Shown: positions 52,482-54,060, numbered from the stretch's first letter. The stretch: DNA of 64,000 bases from an uncultured Candidatus Rokubacteria bacterium (GCA_963762145.1 CAVXJS010000009.1:160001-224000), one strand, 5' to 3'. Program-made: numbers and translations. The notes: generated by a model from the letters alone, not told the origin.

Positions 52482-52900
52482 GCCGCGAGAGCGCGGCCGC
52501 GCCAGGCCAGCACGCGACGCCCCGCGTGGGTCAGCAACACGTAGCCATAGCCGAACAGCAAGACCAGGATGGAATAGAAGATGAGCACACCGACCCACGG
52601 CTCCGTGCTCGCCGTCCACCATCGAACCAGGAGGAGATAGGCCAGGAACGGGGGAAGGAAGAGGACGGGCGTGATCCAGGAGACCTGCCGGTACCGCGGC
52701 ACGGGCTGCCCCGCCAGCCACCAGAAGAGTGCGGTCGCGAACGGGATGTACGCCGGCCAGGCGATCCCCGACACGTAGAGCAGGATCGTGACCCGATCGA
52801 TCAGGCCGATCGTCGGGTCGTCGCGATAGAAGAGGTGGGCGATGAAGGGAATCACGACCGGCAGGGTCGCGGCCAGACGGTAGTAGGTGACTTCCCTCAT
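52478..52900 (-). CDS. Hypothetical 4-TM membrane protein
   Basis: MREVTYYRLAA.. four hydrophobic segments. Confidence 0.65.
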   Translation of the reverse strand: MREVTYYRLAATLPVVIPFIAHLFYRDDPTIGLIDRVTILLYVSGIAWPAYIPFATALFWWLAGQPVPRYRQVSWITPVLFLPPFLAYLLLVRWWTASTEPWVGVLIFYSILVLLFGYGYVLLTHAGRRVLAWRGRALAA

Positions 52901-52949
52901 CCCATCTCGATGGTATCCTCCGCCCGTTCGGCCACCGGCAACAAATCCG

Positions 52950-53495
52950 TCAGGTCCGCTTCCACAGCCCCTGGGACGGGATGCGCAGCGCGCGGTTGAA
53001 CTTGCTGGACGCATTCTCCCAGGCAATGATCGCGGTCAGCTCCACCAGTGCCTCGTCGTCGTAGAAGCGCCGAAGGCGCGCGAAGAAGGCGTCGTCGACG
53101 TCACGCCCGCTGATGGTCATGCGGTCCGCGTATTCCAGGGCCACCCGCTCCGCCTCGTCGTACAGCGGGCTGGTGGCATAGTCGGCCAAGGCGAGGATCT
53201 TGGCCTCGGACAGGCCCAGCTTGCTGCCGACGGCAGCGTTGATGTCCTGTCAGAACTCGCAGCCGTTCAGCGCCGCGACCCGGCGGTTGAGCAGGGCCCC
53301 CAGCTTGCCGTCGATCAGGCCCGAGCCGTCGATCCCGGTCCACATCCCCCGGGCCCCGCGGAAGATCGACGGCCGCCGGGCGTAGACCAGGTGGTTGAGC
53401 AGCGGCGCTCCCCACGTCTTGGCCTGAGCCGCCAGGATCCTGGCGATGTAGTCGTCCGACACTTGCCCGGGATCGACCCCTTCAACGCGTGCCAT
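52950..53495 (-). CDS. AhpD/carboxymuconolactone-decarboxylase family protein, probable selenoprotein (CxxU)
   Basis: ORFs 53250..53498 and 52950..53189 are in frame, separated only by TGA in RVAALNGCEF*QDIN; downstream ERVALEYAD..T..VDD..F..L..ELT..IAWEN..KFN. Confidence 0.85.
53223..53249 (-). other. Candidate bacterial SECIS element
   Basis: UGA-CAGGACAUCAAC-GCUGCC-GUC-GGCAGC: 6-bp stem with a GU-containing loop 12 nt after the UGA. Confidence 0.7.
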
Positions 53496-53535
53496 CACTC
53501 TGTTGACCTCCGCTTGCGAGTTCGAATCGGAACGG

Positions 53536-54060
53536 CTATGACGGCGGGAAAAACAAGGGAACGAACCAGACGGCTCCTCCGCACGCGGTCACGGCGACCT
53601 CCATCACGGTGGCCGCGAGAAGCGCGAGCCGCGGGGAGCGGTGCGGCGAGAAGATCGCGCACACCAGAAAGGTGAGCGCGAGGACTGGCGCGACGAGGAT
53701 CCTGAGCACGGCGAACGCGGCCCACGTCGCCAGGGGCGACGGCGCCGCGTGCCGACCGACGGCGAAGAGGATCACAGCCGCGATGCCCGTGACCGCCACC
53801 ACGACACCCAATGCCGAGAGCCCGGTCCAGAAGGGGCGGTAGGGTCTCAGGAAGAAGAGCGCGGCGGCCGTGGGCACGAGCGCGGCCACCCCGAAGACGG
53901 CAACGAAGAGCACCGCGTCCCCGAACGCGTACATGCCGCTCGACGCCTGCGCGTCGGGGCCGCTCGTGCTCGCCACGCGGATGGCAACGACGGCGGAGGC
54001 GATGAGGAAGGCCGCCGCGTACCCGCCGGCGACCAGAGCGACCTTGAGAAGCGGTCTCAC
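53536..54060 (-). CDS. Hypothetical multi-TM membrane protein
   Basis: 174 aa hydrophobic ORF with ASSGMYAFGD segment; SD GGAG. Confidence 0.65.
   Translation of the reverse strand: MRPLLKVALVAGGYAAAFLIASAVVAIRVASTSGPDAQASSGMYAFGDAVLFVAVFGVAALVPTAAALFFLRPYRPFWTGLSALGVVVAVTGIAAVILFAVGRHAAPSPLATWAAFAVLRILVAPVLALTFLVCAIFSPHRSPRLALLAATVMEVAVTACGGAVWFVPLFFPPS

Follow-up and report, generated by a model that had tools for sequence, protein, structure and literature searches.

A selenoprotein gene of the CMD/AhpD fold predicted from a split reading frame in a Candidatus Rokubacteria genome

AhpD of Mycobacterium tuberculosis is an alkylhydroperoxidase with a C-x-x-C redox motif. The AhpD signature is C-x-x-C-x-x-x-H, and in mycobacteria the AhpD gene is linked to the peroxiredoxin gene ahpC (ahpC-ahpD). 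The selenocysteine (Sec) insertion element (SECIS) of Escherichia coli fdhF is a hairpin located within the coding sequence about 11-12 nt past the UGA, has G/U in its apical loop and is read by SelB.

Selenoproteins belonging to the CMD/AhpD superfamily have been catalogued repeatedly. A CxxU "AhpD-like protein" (COG2128) and a "CMD domain-containing protein" are among the Sargasso Sea selenoprotein families of 2005, for which SECIS figures are given (PMC1088965). "AhpD-like 1" of the GOS set of 2008 is credited with 299 selenoproteins and 902 Cys homologues (PMC2398784), and AhpD-like and CMD selenoprotein families appear in the tables of later reviews (PMC9312934, PMC13188914). The largest predicted bacterial selenoproteome, of 63 genes, is assigned in a 2026 review to a Methylomirabilota MAG from a groundwater survey (PMC13188914).

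The gene described here lies in a 64,000-nt stretch of DNA from an uncultured Candidatus Rokubacteria bacterium (GCA_963762145.1, CAVXJS010000009.1:160001-224000), hereafter the window. A first-pass annotation had proposed it to be a hidden selenoprotein gene split by gene callers, and the homologues, the conservation of the hairpin, the Sec machinery of the genome and an invariant TGA all support this proposal. We consider it highly probable that the gene at this locus is intact and translated, and that its product is a redox protein of 181 residues with the CMD/AhpD fold, a member of NCBIfam NF053654 in which the UGA at codon 82 is read as Sec.

Reading frame, family and chemistry of the gene

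Standard ORF calling gives two minus-strand ORFs here, 53250..53498 (82 aa) and 52950..53189 (79 aa). Both are in one frame (53498-52950+1 = 549, or 183 codons). With TGA read as U, the minus strand from 53495 to 52950 forms a single frame of 181 codons followed by a terminal TGA, with only one in-frame TGA inside. The features of the locus are as follows:

52950..53495, minus strand: predicted selenoprotein coding sequence, ATG start at 53495..53493, TGA stop at 52952..52950, open when TGA is read as U
53250..53252, minus strand: UGA of the predicted Sec82 (counted from Met1), second position of the C-E-F-U redox motif; the TGA column is conserved
53259..53261, minus strand: TGC codon of Cys79, the presumed resolving partner of Sec82 in CxxU, invariant in a 27-sequence alignment
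53238..53249, minus strand: 12-nt spacer CAGGACAUCAAC from the UGA to the hairpin, invariant in length in orthologues
53223..53237, minus strand: SECIS-type hairpin GCUGCC-GUC-GGCAGC, 6 bp in the stem and 3 nt in the apical loop, which starts with G
53507..53511, minus strand: likely ribosome-binding site GGAGG, 11 nt upstream of the ATG, a candidate from sequence reading

Translation starts at ATG 53495 and not at GTG 53498, because the NCBIfam model begins at that Met and the residue just before it varies in orthologues (T, I, V, L or M). A promoter and terminator scan returned no sites of either kind. The protein context around the UGA is A-L-N-G-C-E-F-U-Q-D-I-N-A-A-V-G-S. Three structural claims had been made for this locus: that the two ORFs are one reading frame split by a single TGA, that this TGA takes the place of the second Cys of a CxxC motif, and that a GCUGCC-GUC-GGCAGC stem-loop follows 12 nt past it. 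All three hold: the minus-strand frame is open with TGA read as U, the U aligns with that Cys in Cys homologues and in solved CMD structures, and the stem-loop occupies 53237..53223 (minus).

The read-through protein matches NF053654 (YciW-related (seleno)protein) over model positions 1-179 of 179 (E 1.9e-101, 337.2 bits, curated cut-off 310; 331.2 bits in a six-frame search of the genome). Its C-E-F-U at residues 79-82 provides the Sec or Cys which the family requires at the second C-x-x-[U/C] position, and residues 46-125 match the Pfam CMD domain PF02627 (35.4 bits, gathering threshold 23). Judged by these matches, the gene can be assigned to NF053654. Orthologues in related genomes score 311-337 bits and have one TGA each. 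The "peroxidase-related enzyme" model TIGR01926 is matched at 21.9 bits only, far below its cut-off of 81.8, and the AhpD core domain TIGR00778 is not listed for the read-through protein at E <= 0.01.

By sequence, the nearest PDB match is Atu0492 (2gmy, 9.5e-13), followed by the debrominase Bmp8 (6ohi, 3.1e-12); the nearest solved AhpD, 6k40, is a weak match (E 3.3e-4). The CxxC of all three aligns to C79/U82, the motif of 2gmy being NGCAFCVDMH. By analogy with the fold family, Sec82 would be the attacking nucleophile and Cys79 the residue that resolves, so that the enzyme would cycle between a selenol/thiol and an intramolecular selenenylsulfide. The substrate reduced by the enzyme may be a hydroperoxide, or else an oxidised protein or small-molecule partner, while a thioredoxin-type or low-molecular-weight thiol system could serve for re-reduction. 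It is the fold family, then, that suggests a "thiol peroxidase/reductase" role.

The genomic context offers little guidance on function. Among 30 flanking ORFs (from the window and nine loci of four phyla) there is no peroxiredoxin and no neighbour conserved across phyla, the ORFs belonging to unrelated families. The two membrane-protein genes that flank the gene in the window lack paralogues in the genome, and none of 173 orthologous loci has a homologue of either nearby. The gene stands alone, and its context names neither a partner nor a substrate. Two Candidatus Rokubacteria loci (L133 and L142) show a different arrangement, absent from the window, in which a membrane protein of ferric-reductase type (MsrQ-like) is encoded next after the orthologue. 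Upstream of the orthologue, L142 also has a molybdopterin oxidoreductase (MsrP-like), while the ORF at that place in L133 has no Pfam match. The flanking ORFs are:

L133: 2-1600 and 2116-2769
L142: 2-1477 and 2117-2767

A selenoprotein that is not directed at peroxides or peroxiredoxins, and whose CxxU centre performs some other thiol/selenol chemistry known in the CMD fold, is possible, though we regard it as the less likely case; examples would be the reductive dehalogenation carried out by Bmp8, or the detoxification of an electrophile or metalloid. It would agree with the rank of Bmp8 among the solved relatives, with the missing signature His of AhpD (see below), with scores that fall short of the AhpD-type NCBIfam models, with the lack of an ahpC-type neighbour and with the neighbours of the gene in some Rokubacteria, namely a molybdopterin oxidoreductase on one side (L142) and a membrane protein of ferric-reductase type on the other (L133, L142). 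However, there is no positive pointer to any particular alternative substrate, and the neighbours vary by phylum. This alternative also keeps the same decoding mechanism, with the substrate alone being different, so the Sec reading of the UGA is common to both.

The AhpD signature is broken in this protein (C-E-F-U-Q-D-I-N), as Asn86 (codon 53238..53240, minus strand) occupies the position of its His. Asn is found at this position in all 174 orthologous DNA loci with TGA (described below). Among the listed homologues it is present in 24 of the 24 inferred Sec forms, whereas 31 of the 35 Cys forms have His. CMD genes of the genome itself show a similar split, with His at +4 in five of seven CxxC genes against one of seven CxxU genes. 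Asn is retained in two Cys forms, P0004 and P0019, which by identity fall within the Sec clade. The Asn/His pattern may go back to a single ancestral event. If the Asn/His swap is functional, the low pKa of selenocysteine would make a general base dispensable.

Orthologues are 70-88% identical in protein sequence across four phyla, and their UGA-spacer-hairpin regions are nearly identical (L131-L210). In a quick tree Rokubacteria, Chloroflexota and Rubrobacter are nested inside Acidobacteriota; in the AU test a single Acidobacteriota clade was not rejected (p 0.74) and the constrained tree scored higher. Horizontal transfer between phyla is possible, and we claim no donor. We speculate, with considerable doubt, that the Cys-to-Sec swap rewired the active site (CxxUxxxN against CxxCxxxH with its proton-relay His) and that the gene with its minimal 15-nt SECIS could be a mobile, SelB-promiscuous cassette.

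The hairpin past the UGA and the selenocysteine machinery

The hairpin encodes A87-A88-V89-G90-S91, and GCUGCC-GUC-GGCAGC is the central helix of the predicted fold. Taken alone, it is no better than chance. The fold of the 71-nt region is not significant (z = -1.23). The genome has 70% G+C, and of about 20,000 positions drawn from it at random 12.4% have a perfect stem of at least 6 bp at the same offset; a folding energy of -12 kcal/mol or below is reached by 33% of random 36-mers. Scanning the region 53100-53350 against Rfam (E <= 10) returned only a chance miRNA match and no SECIS family.

Comparison of orthologues gives a different picture. The partly overlapping locus sets reduce, after removal of duplicates, to 141 distinct 48-nt sequences. 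Five of the six stem pairs are paired in 100% of them and the loop-closing pair in 73%; the apical loop is always G-U-N, and the commonest spacer sequence occurs in 94 of the 141. Changes within the stem amount to 21 G-U wobbles and one double change, a compensatory replacement of U-A by C-G in L156 for which L151 has the U-G intermediate. Double changes are few because the stem encodes conserved residues. The conserved hairpin expected at this site is thus present in orthologues, with wobble pairs and one compensatory change. No lower stem below the 6-bp hairpin is conserved between orthologues.

Synonymous sites of the stem are strongly constrained. When the 60 conserved codons with four- or six-fold degeneracy are ordered from the lowest synonymous entropy, those of the stem take places 1, 2, 3 and 5 (0.06, 0.22, 0.40 and 0.69; mean 1.54), while the loop codon Val89 is free (1.16). 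Ala87 is encoded by the rare GCT in 87 of 87 sequences, whereas GCT makes up about 10% of the Ala codons in the rest of the gene.

Paralogues within the genome were also compared. The CxxC/U motif is absent from 10 of the 24 CMD-family matches that were examined. All seven CxxU genes have a perfect stem of 6-8 bp located 14-17 nt from the U of the UGA, with five unrelated stem sequences among them, whereas none of the seven CxxC genes has a stem exceeding 5 bp. Since an ungapped DNA alignment sets the stems of paralogue SECIS regions out of register, these regions were excluded from pair counting. What does lie far beyond chance is the position of the TGA, its conservation, the constraint on synonymous sites of the stem and the contrast between CxxU and CxxC genes. 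It is the pairing in orthologues, the frozen synonymous sites and this contrast that make the predicted SECIS role of the hairpin convincing.

In line with the established bacterial mechanism, SelB carrying Sec-tRNA(Sec) would bind the small hairpin within the coding sequence 12 nt past the UGA and compete with release factor 2 in bringing Sec to the ribosome, after which translation would proceed for 99 codons beyond the UGA to the true stop.

The selenocysteine machinery, which the first-pass annotation expected elsewhere in the genome, is indeed there. The assembly (6.26 Mb in 25 contigs, 88% complete, 70% G+C) contains tRNA-Sec (69.3 bits; anticodon TCA according to ARAGORN), selA (577 bits), selB (363 bits) and two copies of selD, one of which (341 bits) has one in-frame TGA while the second copy has no stop; tRNA-Sec, SelA, SelB and SelD all exceed the cut-offs of their families. 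The selD genes are located at C11:419505-420437 (L018) and C14:136744-137655 (L019), C denoting contigs, and the TGA-bearing one is presumably a selenoprotein gene itself. selB, selA and tRNA-Sec lie side by side at C9:751777-758747 (L001, L009, L010, L228). They share a contig with the window, and the AhpD/CMD-like gene is about 540 kb away. A two-CMD-domain gene with the motif C-N-Y-U-V-R-A-H directly adjoins tRNA-Sec, which places a selenoprotein gene beside the sel operon.

selA is present in 37 of 41 related genomes. When the genome lists are cross-read, it is found in 30 of the 33 genomes carrying this type of gene, the other three being incomplete or fragmented MAGs (78-92% complete), and in five of five carriers from other phyla.

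Six further CMD-family genes of the genome have a TGA at CxxU and a downstream hairpin of their own (L025, L026, L028, L029, L031, L228):

C21:1067781-1068317, plus strand: CxxU CMD gene with TGA and hairpin
C21:984205-984729, plus strand: CxxU CMD gene with TGA and hairpin
C14:582793-583284, plus strand: CxxU CMD gene with TGA and hairpin
C9:331087-331554, minus strand: CxxU CMD gene with TGA and hairpin
C14:354094-354444, minus strand: CxxU CMD gene with TGA and hairpin
C9:758166-758747, minus strand: CxxU CMD gene with TGA and hairpin

None of these six reaches any NCBIfam cut-off (the best NF053654 score is 245.8 against 310 bits), and they may represent uncurated selenoprotein subfamilies. 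In a crude scan of the whole genome, an in-frame TGA had to be flanked by at least 45 open codons in either direction, show the GC3/GC2 signature of coding sequence and have a stem of at least 6 bp; this gave 55 candidates, a raw count that may include false positives. Six of them have a D-U-G-S-C motif, and several show UxxC in thioredoxin- or peroxiredoxin-like contexts. As predictions, the 55 candidates suggest a large selenoproteome.

Conservation of the UGA codon and its reading

The first-pass annotation proposed a check of sequencing reads for the TGA, and the outcome agrees with it. The stretch 52800-53700 was compared with contigs from one RNA library and from soil-metagenome DNA sequencing (three runs, three studies). 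A 1175-nt contig of run X1 spans this whole stretch with six differences, and no change at 53250-53252 is listed in the contigs of the four public runs. One 151-nt contig from the RNA library overlaps the Sec site, which is not proof of transcription. Between 53234 and 53264 contig depth rises to a three- to ten-fold peak, and loose ends flank it at about 53223 and 53269. Because the sequence flanking this peak is unlike, the core of about 40 nt comprising the CxxU, the spacer and the hairpin is common to many soil contigs of other organisms or of paralogues.

The TGA is conserved far beyond this species. A search of 41 related genomes at E <= 1e-30 gave 52 matches to NF053654, with exactly one TGA in 51 of them; the 52nd is a fragment covering model positions 108-179 only and stops short of the Sec site. 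All 13 matches above the family cut-off hold one TGA, and in all 12 of the corresponding fetched loci it falls at the Sec column. When 27 fetched loci were mapped on the query, 25 had TGA at the Sec column, one paralogue had TGC and one weak match was unaligned. TGA also occupies the column in 80 of 80 metagenome loci and in 80 of 80 loci from species-representative genomes of four phyla. Going by the titles of their genomes, the latter carriers belong to Methylomirabilota/Rokubacteria, Acidobacteriota (Pyrinomonadaceae, Blastocatellia), Chloroflexota and Rubrobacter. Three of those from Chloroflexota are cultured Ktedonobacteria, namely Ktedonosporobacter rubrisoli SCAWS-G2, Dictyobacter aurantiacus S27 and D. 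alpinus Uno16; their TGA-bearing orthologues are L139, L143 and L182, and they have selA.

Database proteins show Cys at the Sec column in 16 of 45 aligned sequences. Among the listed homologues covering the motif, which reach further out, Cys is found in 35 of 59, NCBI-annotated Bradyrhizobium proteins being among them. The expectation that homologues would have Cys or Sec here is therefore borne out, by TGA at the DNA level and by Cys in distant homologues.

The same database proteins raise the question of tryptophan, which is printed at the Sec column in 21 of the 45 aligned sequences and in 24 of the 59 homologues of the wider tally. Trp at this column had been named beforehand as an observation that would speak against Sec. 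It does occur in database proteins; at the DNA level, all 174 loci of this clade have TGA at the column and none has TGG. The W-bearing proteins stem from JGI or Logan gene calling, on contigs only about 1 kb long. In several of them (P0010, P0021, P0025) a tail with further W residues runs on past the normal end. None of 31 W proteins occurs exactly among the 80 metagenome loci; among the fetched loci the closest read-through match to a W protein is 89.5%. Most probably the database W is a TGA translated under a Mycoplasma-type table.

These W forms are what could be cited for a gene that is read through but whose UGA yields Trp (or else Cys or Gly) in place of Sec, under a reassigned code or through near-cognate suppression. 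We consider such decoding very improbable. The orthologues end in TGA in 93, in TAG in 42 and in TAA in 39 of the 174 loci. As TGA terminates the very same gene in 93 of them, it is an ordinary, not reassigned, terminator in these organisms. The real substitute in distant homologues is Cys, a classic Sec/Cys pairing, and the Sec machinery of the genome is complete.

That the TGA is a true stop, whether in a pseudogene, through a sequencing error or between two separate small genes, could draw on the two ORFs of standard gene calling and on the many database entries that are C-terminal halves of 103-110 aa, but it is extremely improbable, given a TGA at the identical column in all 141 distinct sequences, which come from four phyla, the lack of any listed variant at the TGA in contigs from four independent studies, a read-through protein that matches a curated full-length model end to end, and the 60 nt from the TGA to the first start codon of the second ORF, which are conserved as protein with free synonymous sites. 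Codons 93 and 94 (Leu, Gly) within this interval are 99-100% conserved as amino acids with synonymous entropies of 1.93 and 1.79, the pattern expected of selection acting on the protein.

Comparison with known systems

The gene is very probably a real selenocysteine gene, and one of an already known kind, since its family, motif and decoding mechanism are all catalogued. Its practical value lies in re-annotation. Public gene calls (P0003-P0027 and others) store the family as C-terminal halves of 103-110 aa or as full-length W forms. Gene callers split the gene or, most probably, render its UGA as Trp on short contigs, and therefore public databases hold halves and W forms of a predicted selenoprotein; these forms are a systematic annotation artefact. 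The gene also enlarges by one the set of selenoproteins in a genome of Rokubacteria/Methylomirabilota type.

The closest described system is the NCBIfam model itself, NF053654.1 "GroundWater_YciW" (equivalog, release 20.0). It has the same length and the same CxxU column, and we found no difference from the protein described here. The 2026 selenoproteome review (PMC13188914) makes no mention of the accession NF053654 in its main text; the "GroundWater" label of the model may point to the groundwater survey cited there.

Among solved structures, Atu0492 (2gmy) and Bmp8 (6ohi/6ohj) are the best matches by sequence, over residues 39-171. Both are Cys proteins, and inspection of the alignments indicates that their identity to the Sec protein is low. 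Bmp8 functions in debromination, while Atu0492 has no assigned function. With AhpD of M. tuberculosis the protein shares a fold family and a redox pair at the C-x-x-C position, in which Sec here replaces the second Cys. It differs from AhpD in having Asn where CMD relatives bear the His of CxxCxxxH (as in the 2gmy alignment) and in the absence of an ahpC neighbour.

Like the SECIS of fdhF, the element found here is a hairpin within the coding sequence with a similar spacer and G/U in the loop, and it would be read by SelB. Unlike the fdhF element, it is much smaller, consisting of a perfect 6-bp stem and a 3-nt loop, with no bulged U seen.

The published AhpD-like family (COG2128/YciW), so far as it is set out in the sources cited above, likewise belongs to the CMD/AhpD superfamily, has CxxU with Sec in second position and widespread Cys homologues, and carries, directly past the UGA, a small SECIS hairpin whose apical loop contains a G. 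The 2026 review links this family to TIGR01926 (PMC13188914), and the protein described here stays below the cut-off of that model (21.9 against 81.8 bits), so it represents a sister subfamily of the published one. The published AhpD-like sets cited here are marine, whereas the clade described in this work comes from soil metagenome runs and from genomes of Methylomirabilota/Rokubacteria, Acidobacteriota, Chloroflexota and Rubrobacter.
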